A stretch of DNA of 12,051 nt from Candidatus Nanopusillus sp. (GCA_046536775.1 JAWDMD010000014.1:1-12051), one strand, 5' to 3'. Numbered from the stretch's first letter, positions 518 through 12,051 are shown. The notes: generated from the letters alone by a model not told the origin. Numbers and translations: made by a program.

Positions 518-1273
518 ATGGTAAAAAGATTTGATGGTAGAGAATATAATGAACTAAGGAAAATAAATATAAAGTTAAATGTAGTGGATAATGCAAGAGG
601 ATCTGCAATATTTTCTTTTGGTGATACTGTTGCATTGGCTGCTGTATATGGACCAAAACCTTCAAAAATGTCCATAGATTATGATAAAGCATTCTTAAGG
701 GTTAGATACAATATGCTGACATTTTCTACACCTGAAAGAAAGAAACCTACACCGGGTAGAAGAGAGATTGAGCTATCTGAAGTAATTAAGAGAGCATTAG
801 AACCAGCATTATTATTAGAAGAAATTCCTGGGAGTATTATAGATATATATATTGAAATATTAAACGCAGATGCTGGAACAAGGACCGCAAGCATAAATGC
901 CGCATCTTTGGCATTATCTTTATCAGGTATTCCAATGAAAGATTTAGTAGTAGCTCTAGCAGTTGGAAAAATTGGAGAAAAAATCGTTGCAGATTTAAAT
1001 AAGGAAGAAGAAGATTACGATTCTGAAAAATTAAAGAAAGATCATGAGAAATCAAAATATATACAATATTATGGAGAAGGAAGAGCTACAGATATACCGG
1101 TTGCAATAATTCCTTCTGAGAAGAGATTTACTTTAATACAGTTGGATGGAGAAATTTCAAATAAAGAACTAAATGATGCATTAAATTTAGCATTAGAAAA
1201 AGCTTTAGAAATAAAAGATCTAATGAAGAATAGTATATTGGGACATTTATCTTCAGATAATTTTATTTATTAG
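518..1273 (+). CDS. rrp41: Exosome catalytic subunit Rrp41 (RNase PH fold)
   Basis: Rrp41 hallmarks: R-DGR-x-NELR near the N-terminus, GSA-F-GDT-A-AAVYGP, RY-M-FS-ERK-P-RRE-E-S, ADAGTRTASINAASLAL, and TDIPVA before LIQLDGE. Contains an extra ~20 aa block relative to the Rrp41 sequences I remember. Confidence 0.9.
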   Translation: MVKRFDGREYNELRKINIKLNVVDNARGSAIFSFGDTVALAAVYGPKPSKMSIDYDKAFLRVRYNMLTFSTPERKKPTPGRREIELSEVIKRALEPALLLEEIPGSIIDIYIEILNADAGTRTASINAASLALSLSGIPMKDLVVALAVGKIGEKIVADLNKEEEDYDSEKLKKDHEKSKYIQYYGEGRATDIPVAIIPSEKRFTLIQLDGEISNKELNDALNLALEKALEIKDLMKNSILGHLSSDNFIY

Positions 1274-1319
1274 TATTTTTATAACAAATTTTATAAAGTA
1301 CAAAATATTCTTAAATCAT

Positions 1320-2645
1320 ATGGGGAAAAATTATAAATATCTTATAATATTAATTTCTATTTTAAACTTTACCAACATTTATTCACAATCAAATAATTAT
1401 GTTTATACATGGTATAATGAATCTATAGGTACATTATATATAGATAAACAATTATTAGAATCAACCGCTAGTATGCTTTCTCAATATTTTAGTGCGCTTT
1501 CTCAATACTTAGGTCCTTTAGCACCAATTATTTTAAAAAATTTACCATATATAATAGAAAATTTACCAATTATAGCTTCATTTCTTGCTCTATTTTTTAT
1601 ATTTTATAGATTCCTAAATATTATTAATGAAAAATTGAATATTATCGATGAACATCCAAAAACAATCATTGGTATATTCTCACTGGGAATATCTCTAGTT
1701 GCTGCATACTTATTTTGGCCTTTTGTTATACCTATATTAGGTACCGCATTTATAATAAAAATATTTAGAATTGGTAAATCTAAATTGGAAAGTTTTAAAG
1801 AAAGCTTAGGTAAGATTAATCCTGGATTAATAAATTTCTTCTCAAAAGCAACAACAAATATTAGAGATTTTGATAAAGATACTGGTAAAGTTCTAAAAGA
1901 CATAAATAAAATAGATAAAATAATAAATCATCCTCGCATAAGAGAATTATTAAATTCTATAGAAAAAGATATAGAAACTTTAAATAATATAATATCCCAC
2001 CTATTAAAAGAAACTGAAAATGAGAAATTAACTCCATATAAATTAATAGCTTATTCATCAAAATTTGATCTAACATATAAGAATGCTATAAATAAAATCG
2101 AACAGTTAAATAGAACAATAAATACTATGCTTAATCCTTACTTATTGAGAAGAGTTGGAAATACAATATTTAGAACAAATAAATTTACACCAAAGTATTT
2201 AAGAGAACTAATAAATATATCAAAAGACTTGGATGGGAGATTAAAAAATACATACAATGAGGGTTATAAAATATTTGAAGGTTTAAAGGGATTCTTAATT
2301 TCTGCAGAAGCTACTAGTAGGGAATATAAAATTAAAATAAATAATAATTTAAACAGAATTCTTAATAATAGGAATTTTTTACCTCTATTTAATAACAATA
2401 AATCTATGACAAGAAAACTACAAGAAATAGAGAACACCGTCGTTGCTATTGATAAAAATCAAAATATACCTCCATTGAAAAAAGTGGAAATATTATCCGA
2501 AATACTTAACTTTACAAAAAAATTATCTAAATATTTACGTAAATTTAAGGGAAATCCAAAAAAATTATCAAACTTTATCAACAAAAATTTTAAGAAAATA
2601 ATTAACTCAACTGGAAGTGATTTAAAAACCTCTAAAAAACGTTAA
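1320..2645 (+). CDS. Hypothetical membrane-anchored protein: N-terminal signal/anchor, short ectodomain, about 3 TM helices, then a ~290-aa Lys/Asn-rich helical domain
   Basis: Long ORF in an AT-rich genome where random ORFs are short. Hydrophobic N-terminus YLIILISILNFTNIYSQ. TM segments LPIIASFLALFFIFYRFL and TIIGIFSLGISLVAAYLFWPFVIPILGTAFII. TATA-like ttttataaa sits about 25-30 nt before the ATG. No family recognised. Confidence 0.75.
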   Translation: MGKNYKYLIILISILNFTNIYSQSNNYVYTWYNESIGTLYIDKQLLESTASMLSQYFSALSQYLGPLAPIILKNLPYIIENLPIIASFLALFFIFYRFLNIINEKLNIIDEHPKTIIGIFSLGISLVAAYLFWPFVIPILGTAFIIKIFRIGKSKLESFKESLGKINPGLINFFSKATTNIRDFDKDTGKVLKDINKIDKIINHPRIRELLNSIEKDIETLNNIISHLLKETENEKLTPYKLIAYSSKFDLTYKNAINKIEQLNRTINTMLNPYLLRRVGNTIFRTNKFTPKYLRELINISKDLDGRLKNTYNEGYKIFEGLKGFLISAEATSREYKIKINNNLNRILNNRNFLPLFNNNKSMTRKLQEIENTVVAIDKNQNIPPLKKVEILSEILNFTKKLSKYLRKFKGNPKKLSNFINKNFKKIINSTGSDLKTSKKR

Positions 2646-2816
2646 TTAGAGCTAATTTGCGAGATTATTATATTCTTATTGAACTATTTACAAGAGTACA
2701 ATGTCCATAGCATCTAGTTATAGAGCTTTAAAATTAAAATAAAATGATAAAATTGTATTTAAGAAACTCAAATCTTTAGAAGGATCTATTAATAAAAGAT
2801 GCTTTTACTATCTTAC

Positions 2817-2948
2817 AGGTGATCTAAAAGATCTAACTAAACTTTACAAAAAACATCTTAATTTTTCATTTCCTAAATATTAAAGAAGATCTCTTCCTCT
2901 GAAATTCTCCAGCATAATTTACCAATCTTTCCAAACCTATAGAAATAC
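2817..2948 (-). pseudogene. Decayed partial copy of the Lhr-type helicase gene (antisense to the + strand) with an apparent ~396-nt internal deletion
   Basis: 2900-2939 is identical to 5104-5143 (40/40). The minus-strand reading gives IGLERLVNYAGEFQR, matching helicase residues ~169-183, with synonymous caa>cag and aga>agg at the edge. It then jumps to a tct tct tta (SSL) match with helicase T316-L319 (+ strand taaagaagat at 2881-2890 = 4692-4701). Further collinear short anchors: ttcc, catct (2854 vs 4661), aggtga (2817 vs 4638). Stops are present in frame. Only the 40-mer and its immediate flanks are secure. Confidence 0.5.
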
Positions 2949-3065
2949 GAAATTTCAAATAAAGAATTAAATGATGCATTAAATTTAGCATTAGAAAAAT
3001 CTTTAGAAATCAAAGAAATAATGAAGAATACAATCTTGAATACATATAAAGCCAGTACATTATAA
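2949..3065 (+). pseudogene. Orphan copy of the 3' end of rrp41 (38 codons plus stop, no 5' part)
   Basis: Hand alignment to 1151-1273 gives 82/90 nt identical over the first 30 codons, with only 1 difference in the first 51 nt. In frame it reads EISNKELNDALNLALEKSLEIKEIMKNTILNTYKASTL*, against EISNKELNDALNLALEKALEIKDLMKNSILGHLSSDNFIY* in rrp41. Homology starts abruptly at 2949. Confidence 0.85.
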
Positions 3066-3171
3066 CCTTTTATTTATTTAATATTTTTTATTTAATTTTT
3101 CTATATCTATTCCCTTTTTGTTATAATTATAAGAAAATAATTTATAAATTTTAACAAATTTATATAACAAA

Positions 3172-4491
3172 ATGGAAGGTACAAAAAATATTAATAAGAA
3201 GTTACTAATAACTATATTTACTTTTTTATTTCTAATAAGGTTTATATTTTCAGTATATCCCCAAGCAACATCTCCACAGAATAATGCAGCAAGTAGCTTA
3301 GAATCGAATTCTATTATTCAATGGATTATTAACTCTTCAGTTAGTGGTTATTCAACTGCAGGTCAATATTTAGCTAATTTTTTATCTATTAATGGAGTAC
3401 CATCCGATGTTTGGCCTATTATAGTATTTTTAATGACTACTTTATTCTTTATTGGAATATATACATTTATTTTTGAAATATTTGTACGAAGAATTGGATC
3501 AAACGAAGAAACAACGACAATGAAAAAAGCAAAAATATTATTTATATTTGCTCTAAGCTTATTTTCTGCAATATCAATAGGTTATGCTATACCATTTTTA
3601 TTTAGTCTTTATGGATTTGTTTTATTAATTGTTTTATTAATAGTTTTATTTTTCTTTGGAAGAGCTATTGTTTCTTATGGAAAAATTTTTCATCATTCAG
3701 TTGATCTTTTTGCAGCTCAGGTAAAAAAAAGTTTAATAGAGGCAGAAAAAGCAGCAAAAGATCTTCCTAAAGAAGAAGCAAATCTAATAACAGAAGGAAT
3801 AAAAAAGATTGAGGATCCTTATAATGCTGCAGAAAATGCATTGAAAGATGCAGAGAACAAATTTGAAAATGCTTTAAATATTATAATAAATGAACATGAA
3901 GAATTTATTAATAGTTTAATAAATGATTATAATAAATTTTTAAATAGTGGTATTGCAGCTTCATGGTCACCTAATGATCGAGATCTTGTAACTAAGCTTA
4001 TTGGAGAATCAAAAAATAAAATATATACAAATGAAGAAGAAGTAAGAAAAATATTAAACAATCCAGATAAACGAAATATACAAAATATACAACAAATCAA
4101 ATCAATAAGACAACTTCGTGATGATATATCAAACTACATCCAGGGACTTGGATTAAACGATGTACAAAAACAAGAATTACAAAATATATTACAGAAAGAC
4201 TATCAGGATACTATTAAAAAATATGAATATAAAATATCATCAGAAATAAATGAGTCAATAAATAAATACAGAGAAGCAGAAAATGCATTAGGGACACTCC
4301 AAGTATATGAAAAATTACTTGATAAACCTGTCTTAAAAATTAGGAGATCTTTAGGTGTTTATGGTGATGAAAAAGTAGAATTAGCAATGTTATCTAAATT
4401 AGAAGAATCAAAAAAAGGAATAGAGATATTAAAAAATTTAGTTAATGAAAGAATACAATCTATTGAAAAATTTCGAGCAACTATTTCTTAA
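3172..4491 (+). CDS. Hypothetical membrane-anchored protein, same architecture as 1320-2645; the helical domain includes a HEPN-like segment
   Basis: Signal/anchor LLITIFTFLFLIRFIFSVYPQ. TM segments WPIIVFLMTTLFFIGIYTFIFEIFV and ILFIFALSLFSAISIGYAIPFLFSLYGFVLLIVLLIVLFFFG. A ~275-aa helical region follows. Shares QYL, PII and LFFI (residues 91-94 in both) with the 441-aa protein. Residues 219-278 are collinear with the HEPN-like region of the 576-aa protein. TATA-like atttataaa sits ~25 nt before the ATG. Confidence 0.75.
   Translation: MEGTKNINKKLLITIFTFLFLIRFIFSVYPQATSPQNNAASSLESNSIIQWIINSSVSGYSTAGQYLANFLSINGVPSDVWPIIVFLMTTLFFIGIYTFIFEIFVRRIGSNEETTTMKKAKILFIFALSLFSAISIGYAIPFLFSLYGFVLLIVLLIVLFFFGRAIVSYGKIFHHSVDLFAAQVKKSLIEAEKAAKDLPKEEANLITEGIKKIEDPYNAAENALKDAENKFENALNIIINEHEEFINSLINDYNKFLNSGIAASWSPNDRDLVTKLIGESKNKIYTNEEEVRKILNNPDKRNIQNIQQIKSIRQLRDDISNYIQGLGLNDVQKQELQNILQKDYQDTIKKYEYKISSEINESINKYREAENALGTLQVYEKLLDKPVLKIRRSLGVYGDEKVELAMLSKLEESKKGIEILKNLVNERIQSIEKFRATIS
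3825..3851 (+). repeat. 27-nt exact repeat (copy 1) tgctgcagaaaatgcattgaaagatgc, encoding AAENALKDA
   Basis: Identical to the reverse complement of 8240-8266. Both copies are in frame in their genes. Confidence 0.95.
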
Positions 4492-4496
4492 GTAAT

Positions 4497-5648
4497 TTAT
4501 TTTTCCAATACAAACTTTTTAATTGCCAAACTTTCTGCATAATCATCTATATCCGTTGTAATTATATATCCAATAGATACTTCATGCAATTTATGACCTG
4601 CCCTTCCAATCCTTTGTATTAACCTTGTAACCTGTCTAGGTGAATTATATTGAATAACAGCATCTACATATCCAATATCTATTCCAAGTTCTAAAGAAGA
4701 TGTCGCAATAATTGCCTTAATTTTCCCTTCCTTAAATAATCTTTCATTTCTTTCCCTTACTTCCCTTGATAAAGAACTATGATGTATTTCAATTTTATAT
4801 TCAGGTAACCAAACCTTAAATCTCGAAGATAATAATTCCGCCATTTCTCTTGTATTTACAAATATTATTACAGATTTATGCTTATCTAATATTTCTTTTA
4901 TTTTTCTTAAGCTCCATGCTATTTTTGGATTCCAATTATATTTCTTTGCTAATTCTAAATCTTCTTCACTGATTTCTGGATAATATACTTCTATATGATA
5001 TTTTTTCTCTGAATACCAATATGCAATTTTATGATCCCTATATCCAAAAACAAATTTTGCAGCTTCATCCAGATCCCCTATTGTTGCAGATAATGCAATT
5101 CTTTGAAATTCTCCAGCATAATTTACCAATCTTTCCAAACCTAAAGATAATTGTATTCCTCTTTTTTCATTTAATAATTCATGTAATTCATCTACAATAA
5201 CATATTTTACTGTTTTTAGTTGTTCTCTTAATCTTTTTCCTAAAAATAATATTTGAAAAGTTTCTGGTGTTGTTATTAAAAATTCTACAGGTTTTTTAGA
5301 TAATCTTGCTCTTTCTTTTTCTTCTGTATCTCCATGTCTAACTGCAACAGATATACCTAAATTATCACACCACCATTTTATTCTATCTAATACATCTCTA
5401 TTCAATGCTCTTAATGGTGATATATAAATTCCTAATAATTGATTTTCAATCCCTTTTTCCTTTAATTCCAATATTTTTGAAAATACAGGTAATATTGCAG
5501 CTTCTGTTTTTCCAGATCCTGTAGGAGCAACAATTAAAGTATTATTTCCATTTAATATTTCAGGAATTGCTATCTTTTGAATTGGATAAAAATCTCCAAA
5601 TCTTTCAAAGAATAATTCCTCTACTTTTTTATTAAGATTATATGTCAT
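4497..5648 (-). CDS. lhr: Lhr-type (large helicase-related, SF2 DEAD/DEAH) helicase, RecA1+RecA2 core only
   Basis: Motifs: Q-motif FYPIQ; I APTGSGKT; Ia YISPLRALNRD; TTPE; II DELH; III SAT; V ATSSLELGIDIG; VI QRIGRAGH. YISPLRAL plus DELH plus ATSSLELGID is the Lhr-like flavour. The ORF ends ~35 aa after motif VI, so it is far shorter than the ~850-900 aa Lhr proteins. Its stop is 5 nt from the stop of the convergent 3172-4491 gene. Confidence 0.88.
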   Translation of the reverse strand: MTYNLNKKVEELFFERFGDFYPIQKIAIPEILNGNNTLIVAPTGSGKTEAAILPVFSKILELKEKGIENQLLGIYISPLRALNRDVLDRIKWWCDNLGISVAVRHGDTEEKERARLSKKPVEFLITTPETFQILFLGKRLREQLKTVKYVIVDELHELLNEKRGIQLSLGLERLVNYAGEFQRIALSATIGDLDEAAKFVFGYRDHKIAYWYSEKKYHIEVYYPEISEEDLELAKKYNWNPKIAWSLRKIKEILDKHKSVIIFVNTREMAELLSSRFKVWLPEYKIEIHHSSLSREVRERNERLFKEGKIKAIIATSSLELGIDIGYVDAVIQYNSPRQVTRLIQRIGRAGHKLHEVSIGYIITTDIDDYAESLAIKKFVLEK

Positions 5649-5818: not shown

Positions 5819-6358
5819 TTGCAAAATATTTTAAGGCAACAGAAGTTTATAGGATCATATTGTAATTATAATAAATATAGAACAATTTTAGGTAATAATT
5901 TAATATCTGAAATTTGTAAAGTTTCTAGCATTATAGATACAATGTCTGAATCAGTTTATAGAGAACGCGTTAGAATAGCAAGAGACATCGGAATATTAGA
6001 TAAAGAATTGCATAAGTATGTTAAAATATATGAGGAGGCATCATTACAAAATAGAAAAGATATTATAAAAGAATTAGAAGAACAAAAGTCAATAGTAGTA
6101 GAGGAATTAAATTCGGAAGTACAAGAAGAAAGACTTCTTAAAAATATTATTAGTTTACATAATGAAAAAGAAAAATTAGTAAATAATTTAATAACAATAA
6201 TTAGAAATAACGCTGTGAAGAAAGATTTTAATGAATTAAATAAATTAATCAAAAATGAAAAAAAGATAATAAATGAATTAAATAAATATATGAAGGAAAA
6301 TGAAAAGACTCTCAAAAATGAAGAAGGATCAATAAATAAGACAGAGCATATTATATAA
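5819..6358 (+). CDS. Hypothetical coiled-coil protein (Glu/Lys/Asn-rich)
   Basis: The open frame has no recognisable motifs. The track start at 5819 is TTG. The first ATG is at 5942 (MSESVYRERV...), which may be the true start. Confidence 0.5.
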   Translation: MQNILRQQKFIGSYCNYNKYRTILGNNLISEICKVSSIIDTMSESVYRERVRIARDIGILDKELHKYVKIYEEASLQNRKDIIKELEEQKSIVVEELNSEVQEERLLKNIISLHNEKEKLVNNLITIIRNNAVKKDFNELNKLIKNEKKIINELNKYMKENEKTLKNEEGSINKTEHII

Positions 6359-7380: not shown

Positions 7381-9111
7381 CTATTTTGATATATAATAAT
7401 CTTTAAATATTTTATTTAGTAAACCAATAACATTATTATCTAGATAACTTAAACCATCTTTACTGAGATCTTTAATCATTTCTTCTCCATATTTTGGATC
7501 ATTAAATGTACCAATCTTATTCCCATTATAATCATATACTTCAATTTCATTTTCTGTTGCTATATATAATTTGGATTTTGACAAATATATATCATAATTT
7601 TTATTTTTTTCTTTATCGATTATAGAATACTTAAATCTTAATAATATTTCTTCCCTCTTATTTTCAATTAAATTTCTTATATTCCTAATATGATATAACA
7701 AAGATTCCTTTAATTTTTCCAATTCAATTATATCATACTTCTTTTCTTTATAATTCTTAATATCATTTTCCAAATTTTCTAATCCACTATATTCTATTGG
7801 CATTTTTTCTTTTACATAATTATTATATTCAACATTAAATAAATCTTGGAATTTTGTTTTTAATTCCTCATAAATTAATATATAATTATCCATAATCTTC
7901 TTTTCATTTTCTTTATCGATAATTTGCTTTATATTTTTCATTTCGGATATAAATTTCTCGGCTTTTTCAAATACATTCATTAAATCTTCATATTTATATT
8001 CATTCACCTTACCATGTTCAAAATCTTTCCTCATTTTCCATACTTCAGATAATATATTTACATATTCAATATTTAATATTCCTCTATCTACAAATAATTT
8101 TTTTAACATATCGGGAGTTTGTTTTGGATCTCCTGGTAATAAACCAGAATCCATTATTACTGCTTGAGCAGAAGTAACCATTGCAACTGCCAAATCTTCA
8201 ATTATCAAATTATTTATTATGTTTTTCAATTTATTTCTAGCATCTTTCAATGCATTTTCTGCAGCAATTATATATTTATTAGCAGCTTCTTGTGATGGTT
8301 TTAGAATTCCTTTCAATAATAATTGCTTCCATGAAATAAACATTCCCCTATCATATAATGGTATACCATCTCTTAAGAATGTAATTATTACCGGATTTGA
8401 TTCTGACATTGCTAACCAGAATTCTGTTAAAGTATAAACTTGTGGATGTAATTCTTTATTAGAGTTCACTAATATTTTTGCCTCCATTGCCTTATTTATT
8501 ATTAAATCCATCAATTTTATTTTTAATTCCTCAAATGTATGTTGTTTAACATCGGTATCATCAATTACAACATATATATCTACATCAGAAGATTCAACAC
8601 TACTCCCTTTTACTTGAGAACCTGCTAAAACATATGCAACAACATATCTTTGTAATATATCAATTATTAGTTTTTTATGAACACTTGTTAACCTAAATAT
8701 TTCAAATATTCCTTTATCATATATTATATTACCAACAGACAATAAATCCAATAATTCAAATCTTGAGTCCATTGCAATATTTTTTATGTCTTCAATCAAT
8801 AAAACATCTAACCATATATCCAACTTTTCATTTTTTATTTTCTGAAGATATTTTTCTAAAAATGATGCCTTTAATTTTATTTTTTCTTCTGGACTTAAAT
8901 CAAAATCTGATAAAATTATTATCCAATGCTTATAAACTTCTATCTCTCTTTTATATTTTTCAAACAAGTCATCACTTACCATTATGGAACCATAATAAAT
9001 TAATTCCTTCAATAGATTGTTTATATTCTCATTCTTTTCTTTAAATTCCATTATTCCAATTACTCTATCTTTATACTCACTATTTAATATATCGTCCTTA
9101 AGATCTACCAT
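7381..9111 (-). CDS. Pol-beta-superfamily nucleotidyltransferase fused to a HEPN domain, with an N-terminal degenerate NTase-like repeat and a ~170-aa C-terminal extension
   Basis: NTase signature LAGSQVKGSSVESSDVDIYVVIDD (GS...DxD). The downstream helical domain carries an R-x4-H motif, MRKDFEHG (R361-H366, 8014-8031), followed by EDLMNVFEKAEKFISEM, the typical HEPN layout. Residues ~60-160 (IIILSDFDL...LLDLLSVGNIIYDKG) parallel residues ~175-260 (DIYVVIDDTD...IITFLRDGIPLYDRG). The stop is 2 nt before the L35Ae start. Confidence 0.8.
   Translation of the reverse strand: MVDLKDDILNSEYKDRVIGIMEFKEKNENINNLLKELIYYGSIMVSDDLFEKYKREIEVYKHWIIILSDFDLSPEEKIKLKASFLEKYLQKIKNEKLDIWLDVLLIEDIKNIAMDSRFELLDLLSVGNIIYDKGIFEIFRLTSVHKKLIIDILQRYVVAYVLAGSQVKGSSVESSDVDIYVVIDDTDVKQHTFEELKIKLMDLIINKAMEAKILVNSNKELHPQVYTLTEFWLAMSESNPVIITFLRDGIPLYDRGMFISWKQLLLKGILKPSQEAANKYIIAAENALKDARNKLKNIINNLIIEDLAVAMVTSAQAVIMDSGLLPGDPKQTPDMLKKLFVDRGILNIEYVNILSEVWKMRKDFEHGKVNEYKYEDLMNVFEKAEKFISEMKNIKQIIDKENEKKIMDNYILIYEELKTKFQDLFNVEYNNYVKEKMPIEYSGLENLENDIKNYKEKKYDIIELEKLKESLLYHIRNIRNLIENKREEILLRFKYSIIDKEKNKNYDIYLSKSKLYIATENEIEVYDYNGNKIGTFNDPKYGEEMIKDLSKDGLSYLDNNVIGLLNKIFKDYYISK
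8240..8266 (-). repeat. 27-nt exact repeat (copy 2, inverted), encoding AAENALKDA (residues 283-291 of the NTase-HEPN protein)
   Basis: The reverse complement equals 3825-3851. Confidence 0.95.
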
Positions 9112-10709: not shown

Positions 10710-10826
10710 ATGAGGAGAAGTTCAAGGAGATGGAAAAAATACCTAAGATCTAGATGGAAATGGCAGAGGAGAAGAATTAGAGAGGAAAAAAGACTAAGAA
10801 AAATAGCTAGAATGAGAGCTTTATAA
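10710..10826 (+). CDS. rpl41e: 50S ribosomal protein L41e (38 aa), below the ORF-track length cutoff
   Basis: Translation is MRRSSRRWKKYLRSRWKWQRRRIREEKRLRKIARMRAL*. This is an extremely Arg/Lys/Trp-rich micro-protein with the RSSRRWKK...RWKW...R pattern of archaeal L41e. TATA-like tttaaaaatatt sits ~25-30 nt upstream. Confidence 0.85.
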   Translation: MRRSSRRWKKYLRSRWKWQRRRIREEKRLRKIARMRAL

Positions 10827-10829
10827 ATA
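10820..10829 (+). promoter_or_regulatory. Candidate TATA box (tttataaata) for the 16S rRNA transcription unit
   Basis: Consensus-like archaeal TATA element, ~165 nt before the mature 16S 5' end and overlapping the L41e stop. A/T-rich boxes are frequent by chance in this genome, and tttttaaaatatt at 10836-10848 is an alternative. Confidence 0.25.
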
Positions 10830-10994: not shown

Positions 10995-12051
10995 ATTCCC
11001 GTTGATCCTGCGGGGGGCCATCACTATCTCCCTCCGACTAACCCATGGGAGGCTAGGGATACCGGGCATGGTATCCCGTCGTACGGCTGAGTAACACGTC
11101 GATAACTCTGCCTCGGGAGGAGAATATCCTCGGGAAACTGAGGATAATTCTCCATAGGAAATGGGGTGTGAAATTCCCCCATTTCCGAAAAGGACTGGGA
11201 TAATCCCTCTCAGTTCCGCCCGAGAGGAGGTCGGCGGCCTATCAGGTAGTTGGCGGGGTAATGGCCCGCCAAGCCTAAGACGGGTAGGGGCCGTGAGAGC
11301 GGAAGCCCCCAGATCGGCACTGAGACAAGGGCCGAGGTCCTACGGGATGCACCAGGGGCGAAACCTCCGCAATGGGTGAAAGCCTGACGGGGGGAGGGAG
11401 AGTGCCTGGAGTTTTCTCCAGGCTTTTGAGGAGTGTAAAAAGCTCCCAGAATAAGCAGTGGGCCAGAGGGGTGGCAGTCGCCACGGGAATACCCCCGCTG
11501 CAAGCGATGGCCTCGATTACTGGGCCTAAAGGGGCCGTAGCCGGACTAGTGTGACTCCTGTGAAATCCACGGTAATAATTCCGTGGGCGTGCAGGGGTTA
11601 CTACTAGTCTAGAGGACGGAAGAAGCCAAGGGTATTCCCGGGGGAGTAGCGAAATGCAGCAATCCCGAGAAGACCACCCGAGGCGAAAGCGCTTGGCTAT
11701 TCCGATCCTGACGGTGATGGCCGAAAGCTGGGGGATCAAAAGGGATTAGAGACCCCTGTAGTCCCAGCTATCAACGCTGTGAGCTACCTGCTGGGTGGAC
11801 TTAGAGTCCACTTAGTGGGATAGGGAAGCCGTTAAGCTCACCGCCTGGGGAGTACGGCCGCAAGGCTGAAACTTAAAGGAATAGGCGGGGGGGCACACAA
11901 GGGGTGGGGTGTGCGGTTTAATGGGACCTAACACCGGAAACCTTACCGGGAGCGACAGCAGGATGATGGTCAGGCTGAAGACCTTACCGGACACGCTGAG
12001 AGGAGGTGCATGGCTGCCGTCAGCTCGTGCCGTGAGGTATCCTGTTAAGTC
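10995..12051 (+). rRNA. 16S (SSU) ribosomal RNA, archaeal, 5' ~1057 nt; 3' end beyond the window
   Basis: Starts with attcccgttgatcctgcgg. Contains ctacggg...gcaatggg, the 530-loop region, gggcctaaag, ggattagagacccctgtagtcc, aaacttaaaggaataggcggggg, and gtgcatggctgccgtcagctcgtgccgtgagg in the expected order and spacing. All track ORFs here are artefacts. Confidence 0.97.

Follow-up and report, generated by a model that had tools for sequence, protein, structure and literature searches.

The rrp41–lhr interval of Nanopusillus is probably a long-standing variable locus that stacks old membrane-protein genes

How can two neighboring genes be impossible to align when the non-coding scraps lying beside them are still near-identical to the genes from which they derive? 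The question is posed by a contig of Candidatus Nanopusillus sp. (GCA_046536775.1 JAWDMD010000014.1:1-12051; hereafter the window, meaning the whole 12,051-nucleotide (nt) stretch analyzed), which is archaeal DNA of 24% GC with a small-subunit ribosomal RNA gene at 10995-12051. Between the exosome subunit gene rrp41 and the helicase gene lhr, it carries two open reading frames (ORFs), A and B, of 441 and 439 amino acids (aa), as well as truncated copies of both flanking genes (rrp41' and lhr'). The first-pass annotation had proposed that either a duplicated gene diversified very rapidly or different alleles of a hypervariable locus were stacked by recombination. We consider it likely that the rrp41–lhr interval is a long-standing variable locus in which the stacked genes are old residents rather than recent duplicates, and in which the tails of the encoded proteins change fast and are swapped between strains. 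More generally, near-identical pseudogene scraps beside unalignable genes can mean that old alleles were stacked in a young clade.

The interval begins at rrp41 (518-1273, + strand; an RNase PH exosome subunit, Pfam RNase_PH 1.5e-34), its left conserved anchor, and ends at lhr (4497-5648, − strand; a 383-aa Lhr-like helicase core, Pfam DEAD 5.5e-42 and Helicase_C 3e-25), its right conserved anchor, which converges on B across a 5-nt gap. ORF A (1320-2645, + strand) is separated from ORF B (3172-4491, + strand) by a non-coding spacer of 526 nt (2646-3171). This spacer opens with a stretch, X (2646-2896), that is alignable at the orthologous position only. It continues with lhr' (2897-2943, − strand), a copy of an internal piece of lhr (parent 5101-5147, codons ~167-183; 96% over 47 nt with a 40-nt exact core, E 6e-18). 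A 5-nt filler, AATAC (2944-2948), marks the illegitimate junction with rrp41' (2949-3149, + strand), as seen when the junction is compared directly with both parents. The latter fragment is a copy of the last ~40 codons of rrp41, the parent being the last 41 codons (1151-1273): positions 2949-3038 match 1151-1240 at 91% over 90 nt (blastn E 4e-31), and weaker similarity extends to ~3149 versus 1338, i.e., into the intergenic region between rrp41 and A. An in-frame stop codon at 2940-2942, just upstream, indicates that rrp41' is not part of an ORF. The near-identity of the two remnants to their parents, on which the initial puzzle was built, is thereby borne out and lies far beyond chance.

The composite scar of lhr' and rrp41' is a shared feature of a clade and not a peculiarity of this contig. 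It lies downstream of A in nearly every related locus that reaches past A (~40 loci) and has the same boundaries throughout, with rrp41' beginning at parent position 1151/1152 in all loci and lhr' covering parent positions 5085-5149 at most. It is confined to loci that contain A, and loci without A are free of it. Across 27 loci, the identity of rrp41' to the parent in its own genome is 0.856 and that to the parents of other genomes 0.85 (fragment versus fragment 0.81, parent versus parent 0.93); the corresponding values for lhr' in 11 loci are 0.81 and 0.81 (0.72 and 0.95). Since the fragments are equally close to their own and to foreign parents, they appear to have decayed independently and neutrally, and gene conversion as a process that keeps the scar young was rejected. 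Divergence of the scar from its parents is 4–9% in the window and ~15% on average across loci, and the stem from scar formation to the radiation of the clade amounts to ~0.02 substitutions per site compared with ~0.095 per lineage since then. The Jukes-Cantor distance of the spacer is ~0.15, and the silent third-position distance in the flanks is 0.126. X, which is 68–99% identical at orthologous sites, evolves at about the rate of silent sites and is deleted in some relatives. Deletions have likewise shortened the spacer to 262-303 nt in four loci (L013, L053, L019, and L025) and have partly or wholly removed the scar in L005, L019, L025, and L053. The scraps thus look near-identical because the clade is young and because rrp41 and lhr hardly change. 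As observations in their own right, a genome reduced to roughly 0.6 Mb retains a 526-nt spacer without detectable function, and gene callers place ORFs of 27-41 aa on its minus strand in L001 and L002, the spacer rate being neutral.

Both genes have many relatives, all of them in Nanopusillus/Nanobsidianus-type sequences: 77 orthologues of A at 48–99% identity and 90 homologues of B at 42–100%. The two are neighbors in the complete genome of N. acidilobi (CP010514), in the Nst1 single-cell assembly, in other metagenome-assembled genomes (MAGs), and in ~40 metagenome contigs (adjacent orthologue pairs are, for example, Nst1_241/Nst1_240, Nps_03185/Nps_03190, and RXQ68_02810/02805, with Nst1_241 and Nps_03185 corresponding to A), and the order rrp4-rrp41-A-B-lhr-phosphoesterase-L35Ae is identical in Nst1. 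When genomes are ordered by the nucleotide identity of their flanks (rrp41 plus lhr) to the A-carrying clade, the content of the interval differs as follows. L062 (flank identity ~82–84%), together with L061 and L071, which are outside the flank matrix, has a single B-type gene adjoining lhr (phmmer 1e-15 and 8e-8), while YN1 (L060; 81–83%) has three genes including a B-type one (hmmsearch 1.5e-16). Just outside the A clade, L058, L059, and L057 carry genes of a further type, C, or C-like genes, with or without the minus-strand coiled-coil genes D1 and D2, and have neither A nor the scar. Within the A clade, the interval holds A, the scar, and either B or C, sometimes with D1/D2 in between. 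C is demonstrably homologous to B and shares its layout in profile-profile comparison (hhalign probability 95.7%, score 70.6, collinear; reversed-profile controls 31–38). As the flanks of L032 (A plus C) are 96% identical to those of L053 and L025 (A plus B), B and C replace each other among close relatives. Genes of the B type adjoin lhr even in distant relatives. The survey of the interval that had been suggested as a check on the first-pass annotation therefore finds variable content, drawn from B, C, A, and D1/D2, between conserved anchors.

Some details of these relatives are recorded here for completeness. D1 (~236 aa) and D2 (~243 aa) are soluble coiled-coil genes on the minus strand that lie between A and B/C in some relatives (L039 at 1907-3406; L043-L046) and directly after rrp41 in L058 (8755-10298). 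In L039, D2 is broken and the entire lhr'+rrp41' scar occurs twice, on either side of the D1/D2 pair. A weak match to the B profile (E 7e-5) was also obtained for P0190, a 421-aa protein on a different archaeal contig of higher GC (L070 5001-6266) in an unrelated context; it has the layout of B, with a signal-like end (..AGAQ), a first transmembrane (TM) helix, a charged loop, a TM hairpin, and a K/E-rich helical tail. Considered as a distant relative, P0190 was set aside as uninformative, its layout being alike but its genomic context different.

Alleles at this locus have been exchanged between strains, and the breakpoints can be located. B consists of a conserved N-terminal membrane domain (3172-3680, + strand, residues 1 to ~170) and a hypervariable helical tail (3681-4491, + strand, residues ~171-439), and the latter is the swapped segment. 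Compared with the near-identical strain L002, the window is 96–100% identical (mostly 100%) from 881 to ~3680, a span that comprises the end of rrp41, A, the spacer, and the N-terminal domain of B; identity then drops to 54–77% over 3681-4480, i.e., the B tail, and returns to 94–99% in lhr. The nucleotide identity of the B N-terminal domain to L002 and L004 is 97–100%. Between the window and L002, the synonymous divergence (dS) rises from ~0.01 in A to 0.31 in the B tail and is still 0.13 in the neighboring portion of lhr, and this jump indicates that the tail was imported together with a bit of lhr. Similarly, the B N-terminal domains of L053, L013, L019, and L025 are 93–98% identical, while their tails share only 34–49%. 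The tail of L053 is 69% identical to that of L037 and 61% to that of L006, whereas its A and its B N-terminal domain are closest to those of L013, L019, and L025; an internal breakpoint between L053 and L025 falls at about residue 225. The relationships among B tails are discordant with those of A and with those of the B N-terminal domain. The locus combines conserved flanks, divergent content, breakpoints, and discordance, the features by which replacement-type hypervariable loci are recognized.

The anchors and the enclosed genes differ strongly in rate. Among metagenome loci the rrp41 and lhr proteins are 92–100% identical compared with 48–99% for A and 44–71% for B, which confirms the first-pass description of a cassette that evolves fast and lies between conserved anchors. 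The identity of rrp41 stays at 92–100% within the Nanopusillus/Nanobsidianus clade that carries A and falls to 76–84% in more distant Nanopusillaceae, and lhr is 94–98% identical in L053-L059 and 81–85% in the distant L060-L062. Along B, the mean pairwise identity per 20-residue block is 67–84% over residues 1-180 and 31–51% thereafter, and in A it falls to 36–52% over the last 100 residues; the N-terminal domains of A and of B each keep 76–77% identity among their own orthologues. The ratio of non-synonymous to synonymous divergence (dN/dS), for which an analysis of orthologues had been recommended, is 0.04–0.12 for rrp41 and lhr, 0.4–0.6 for the A N-terminal domain, 0.9–1.5 for the A tail, 0.6–0.75 for the B N-terminal domain, and 1.4–2.0 for the B tail (dN 0.59–0.70), as obtained by Nei-Gojobori counting in a 24% GC genome from tails that align poorly at 30–40% identity. 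In the B tail the three codon positions differ to a similar extent (e.g., 0.21/0.20/0.19), in contrast to lhr, where position 3 carries most of the changes (0.03/0.02/0.16). Fast change is strong in the tail of B and moderate in that of A. Taken together, the substitution patterns suggest that the tails change at or above the neutral rate. Nevertheless, at a genomic GC content of 24%, no stop codons interrupt the ~260-codon tail frames, and the encoded tails are still confidently helical, which points to selection on form rather than on sequence, possibly selection that favors change.

Two candidate sources of this diversity were considered and rejected. Silent third-position divergence at conserved codons is 0.158 in the B tails and thus only modestly above the 0.126 of the flanks, which speaks against ancient balanced alleles as the sole cause, although the tail allele classes may be somewhat older. 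A diversity-generating retroelement or other hypermutation does not fit either, as no reverse transcriptase domain was found by Pfam in the 10 largest ORFs of the window (A and B included), the B tail has no repeat copy in the window that could serve as a template, and the changes comprise all substitution classes as well as indels.

The products of A and B share a common layout, as the first-pass annotation had claimed and as hydropathy and AlphaFold2 models corroborate. In both, a K-rich N-terminus is followed by a hydrophobic, signal-like stretch ending in [IV]-Y-[SP]-Q (..NIYS|QS in A, ..SVYP|QAT in B), a nearly uncharged segment of 45-55 residues, a first TM helix at residues 81/82-107/108, a short charged loop, a further hydrophobic stretch of 36-55 residues, and an all-helical tail. 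In A this corresponds to a signal-like N-terminus, an ectodomain of ~55 aa, a TM region at residues 81-152, and a basic helical tail (153-441); the conserved domain of B has its signal-like N-terminus, an uncharged ectodomain, and three TM helices. AlphaFold2 models the tails as helical with a pLDDT (predicted local distance difference test score) of ~80–95, and the membrane part is modeled poorly. Several short motifs are collinear as described before (SQYL 61-64 in A and GQYL 64-67 in B, LPII 82-85 and WPII 81-84, and LFFI 91-94 in both), and the absence of nucleotide similarity between the two genes holds in a self-comparison of the window. The ectodomain, which is the conserved part of the protein, has 0-4 K/R residues, the loop after the first TM helix is K/R-rich in B, and the tail begins K/R-rich; in B and C, the TM helices that follow the signal segment are odd in number. 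Hydropathy and charge distribution would place the short ectodomain outside and the tail in the cytoplasm, with A being ambiguous.

For the donor and the mechanism of the stacking we infer the following history. The interval would accommodate between one and four members of a family that is restricted to this lineage and whose products are all-helical and anchored in the membrane, with a single B-type gene convergent on lhr as the presumed ancestral state. A single recombination event in the ancestor shared by N. acidilobi, Nst1, and this MAG would have placed A, already very different from the resident gene, between rrp41 and that resident. The donor segment would have brought its own copy of the rrp41 3' end; the left end of the A unit is seamless inside rrp41, and the right join would have been illegitimate, leaving the displaced rrp41 3' end and a roughly 60-nt piece of lhr as a scar. 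Scar and spacer have since decayed at the neutral rate. Whole tails, or the second gene as a unit (B to C), have been exchanged between strains by homologous recombination, with lhr as one anchor and the conserved N-terminal domain or the spacer as the other. One-time addition of A to a resident of the B/C type is the simplest history. Homology-facilitated illegitimate recombination and the junctions of tandem duplications form a known class of mechanism, and the addition of A fits either the former or a Campbell-type integration of a circle derived from an rrp41...lhr locus. As in that class, the A unit is seamless in rrp41 on one side and has a 5-nt filler and a displaced partial copy of the target on the other; the isolated internal lhr piece of ~60 nt, however, is not predicted by the simple model.

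Several points weigh against this reconstruction. X does not derive from lhr, and a tandem or Campbell model therefore needs an extra deletion, or else the lhr piece is a templated filler; X as decayed lhr or B sequence was rejected, since blastn and tblastx found no copy of X elsewhere and returned orthologous X only. No donor is known, because the homologue search found no A-type gene outside the A clade. The topology was derived from hydropathy and the positive-inside rule only, and the second hydrophobic stretch of A, at 36 residues, could be a single helix, which would put the tail outside. With dN/dS values of 1.4–2, positive selection is not clearly distinguished from near-neutral drift or from somewhat older allele classes. 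Finally, homology between A and B is not established. Full-length profiles of the two align collinearly over 345 columns (hhalign probability 74%), but their score of 46 lies within the range of reversed-profile controls (26–58), a consequence of coiled-coil bias. When the N-terminal membrane domains alone are compared, which removes this bias, the score is 27 versus 16–17 for reversed controls. Moreover, the best non-self match of the hidden Markov model of the A N-terminal domain is the B-type gene of the outgroup L061 (E 4e-5, 18.5 bits; collinear, residues 3-127 versus 4-135). The view that A and B are diverged paralogues, for which profile-profile comparison had been named as the check, hence gains a signal above controls in the N-terminal domain and none over the full length, and we regard ancient paralogy as probable but unproven from these profile alignments.

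The contrary position, that A and B are unrelated proteins sharing only a membrane anchor and a helical bundle, and that the locus is a dumping ground, is possible but in our view doubtful. It can draw on the absence of a BLASTP match between A and B (best E 0.53), on the full-length comparison just described, on the lack of any hhalign signal between A and C, and on the arrival of the unrelated soluble coiled-coil genes D1 and D2 in the same interval. On the other hand, it leaves the N-terminal domains collinear within a few residues ([IV]Y[SA]Q signal end, QYL motif, and first TM helix at 81-108) and does not account for the match of the A N-terminal profile to L061 or for the excess over reversed controls. 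Far less credible, and indeed extremely improbable, is a recent tandem duplication that copied a gene and its flanks, after which the two copies diverged extremely fast. The junction lhr(5147)|rrp41(1151) is the product expected from a tandem duplication of 1151-5147, layout and length of the two products are equal, and the tails do change at or above the neutral rate. However, every scar-bearing genome has distinct orthologues of A and B whose N-terminal domains keep 76–77% identity within families and cannot be aligned between them, and the stem available for divergence is only ~0.02. Such a short stem combined with this level of conservation means that A and B were not copies of each other when the scar formed; in addition, a Pfam scan showed no hypermutation machinery and the tail has no repeat copy. 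Rapid divergence after duplication, one of the two options raised at first, is therefore refuted, whereas stacking of different residents by recombination is supported by the outgroups with a single B-type gene, the restriction of the scar to loci with A, the B/C replacement, and the tail swaps. An assembly artefact, i.e., a chimeric MAG contig that joins alleles of two strains, might be suspected of a 12-kb MAG contig but has next to no chance of being correct, given the same arrangement in CP010514, Nst1, and dozens of independent metagenome contigs.

Integrative elements that target tRNA genes restore the target gene and leave a partial direct repeat. By analogy, A, X, and the scar could be the remnant of a mobile element that integrated site-specifically into the 3' end of rrp41 and restored the gene. 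A is bordered on both sides by the rrp41 3' end in direct repeat (1151-1240 and 2949-3038), every copy starts at parent position 1151/1152, the scar occurs twice around the D1–D2 pair of L039, and relatives without A are scar-free, as they would be after excision. We nonetheless judge this origin improbable: neither an integrase nor any other mobility gene was found in the unit or elsewhere in the window (Pfam on the 10 largest ORFs, PHROG/PADLOC), the unit is one chromosomal-type gene with its own putative promoter, single ancestry accounts for the identical boundaries, and L039 duplicates the whole composite scar, which fits recombination between scar-bearing chromosomes and not an independent attachment-site event. 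The scar might instead be a functional element, e.g., an RNA that acts as antisense or decoy toward the mRNA of lhr or rrp41 and is selected for similarity to its target; it is kept in ~40 loci of a 0.6-Mb reduced genome, and the + strand of lhr' is antisense to lhr mRNA. This is very improbable as well, because the scar evolves neutrally, is no closer to its own parent than to foreign ones, and has been deleted partly or wholly in L005, L019, L025, and L053. The A–B spacer has no Rfam match at E up to 1 and no excess folding stability (z-score 0.28), and with its neutral rate and tolerated deletions it was rejected as an RNA gene or regulator. A last alternative, close to the functional reading that the first-pass annotation had itself marked as speculative, holds that the tails are extracellular and that the locus is a surface-variation or host-recognition cassette. 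Strain-level allele replacement, dN/dS of at least 1, and the great abundance of a B orthologue are compatible with it, as is a single-helix model of the second hydrophobic stretch in A, which would put the tail outside. Jarett et al. 2018 (PMC6142677) reported a high density of non-synonymous single-nucleotide polymorphisms in hypothetical membrane or external proteins of these Nanoarchaeota, which could be cited in its favor, too. Still, the positive-inside rule puts the tail in the cytoplasm, B and C have odd numbers of TM helices, and the ectodomain is conserved; a predicted cytoplasmic tail and a conserved ectodomain argue against simple surface variation, and we hold this alternative to be unlikely.

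The preferred reading of old residents stacked at a variable locus leaves the function of the proteins to be considered separately. A has no Pfam match, and searches of PHROG, PADLOC, and PDB sequences likewise gave nothing above coiled-coil level; B reaches 18.5 bits for the Pfam family Sec8_N, below the cut-off of 26.8. Foldseek searches against PDB and viral libraries returned no match with E below 0.001. An origin from a defense system or phage was rejected, as PADLOC, PHROG, and BFVD yielded coiled-coil noise only. In a profile search of 1.84 billion representatives, just 12 proteins had E below 1e-10, which shows the family to be lineage-restricted. The B orthologue of N. acidilobi, Nps_03190, accounts for 0.66% of spectra in the proteome of that organism (Wurch et al. 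2016, PMC4935971, Supplementary Data 1), where its rank is 20, 32, or 33 depending on the measure (MS1, MIT, and spectral count, respectively), while the A orthologue, Nps_03185, is undetected in the same proteome (PMC4935971). In the searchable literature, there is no mention of Nst1_240/241 or Nps_03185/03190. With low confidence, the B-type protein may be an abundant membrane scaffold whose cytoplasmic bundle either drifts, constrained in composition or structure only, or is made to vary under pressure from an antagonist, for example a virus or a host factor acting where the cells touch. A bolder and rather unlikely proposal is that B/C, and A, form an abundant Nanopusillaceae-specific membrane system whose bundle would be a strain-specific recognition or counter-defense determinant against viruses or host-contact factors, made hyperdiverse by selection and shuffled as a cassette, with the rrp41 3' end as a reusable landing site for stacking.

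Comparable architectures are known. Replacement-type flexible genomic islands include O-antigen and capsule loci and the strain-variable envelope-gene islands of marine bacteria and archaea. The rrp41–lhr interval resembles them in its fixed position between conserved anchors, in the divergent or non-homologous content of near-identical strains, in homologous recombination in the flanks, and in the conflict between the phylogeny of its variable part and that of the flanks. It differs in that the exchanged unit comprises a single gene, two genes, or just the 3' two-thirds of a gene, that the products are not glycosylation enzymes, and that the variable part is predicted to face the cytoplasm. 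Chlamydial Inc proteins such as IncA also combine a TM hairpin with a long helical tail and are lineage-restricted, fast-evolving proteins of an obligate symbiont or parasite, but they lack an N-terminal signal-like segment and an ectodomain, and there is no evidence of secretion into host membranes for B; the match of the B-family profile to IncA (6e6a_B, E 0.004) is marginal, restricted to the tail, and at the level of coiled-coil noise, with apolipophorin, MCP, and designed bundles in the same match list. Bundles of the ClyA/Hbl type come up as well, ClyA being the top Foldseek match of the B model (4phq_A, E 0.034) and Hbl-B appearing in the profile search (E 0.07), but TM-scores of 0.2–0.3 and a root-mean-square deviation of ~26 Å are not significant and reflect generic long antiparallel helices. 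The diversified membrane proteins of Yellowstone Nanoarchaeota (PMC6142677) come from the same organisms and habitats, but that study highlights a cytochrome bd-I oxidase and a FlaJ/TadC homologue, not this locus.

The locus is a newly described, uncharacterized example of a replacement-type variable locus between conserved anchors and is the most variable stretch of an otherwise highly conserved neighborhood. Very few DPANN symbionts can be had in co-culture, and Nanopusillus and Nanobsidianus are two of them. One product of the interval ranks among the most abundant N. acidilobi proteins and represents a lineage-specific family without annotation, and the interval varies between strains that elsewhere show identity over kilobases. 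It is a testable candidate for a phenotype at the strain level and a convenient marker by which strains could be tracked in metagenomes from hot springs.

Further features of the window complete the picture. Rrp4 (3-515, + strand) lies directly before rrp41. A TATA-like box, TTTATAAA, at 1290-1297 (+ strand) ends 22 nt upstream of the ATG of A and is the putative own promoter of this gene, whose leader would be short or absent. The same box at 3141-3148 (+ strand) ends 23 nt upstream of the ATG of B, and C-type genes at other loci also have a TATA-like box upstream of their ATG. A third identical copy of TTTATAAA is present at 10820-10827, ~170 nt upstream of the 16S rRNA gene; overall the count across the window is not above chance. 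The Lhr-like helicase is a two-domain core only (DEAD plus Helicase_C), its length of 383 aa is kept in all relatives, and in every case it converges on the B/C-type gene, from which a few bases separate it. A 73-nt stretch of the B tail (3825-3897, + strand) is shared at 77% with 8194-8266, which lies in a minus-strand gene (7381-9111) for a 576-aa nucleotidyltransferase-like protein. The shared patch covers 23 aa at 65% (AAENALKDA.NK..N, BLASTP E 1e-4), the Nst1 orthologue of the nucleotidyltransferase gene has the same similarity to the B tail of the window, and the resemblance may reflect either a helical motif arising by chance or a short patch of sequence. A 179-aa coiled-coil ORF without a Pfam match (5819-6358, + strand), located between lhr and the gene for the phosphoesterase, is absent from N. 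acidilobi and Nst1 and only 38–39% identical in L057/L058, and constitutes a second variable spot on the opposite side of lhr.

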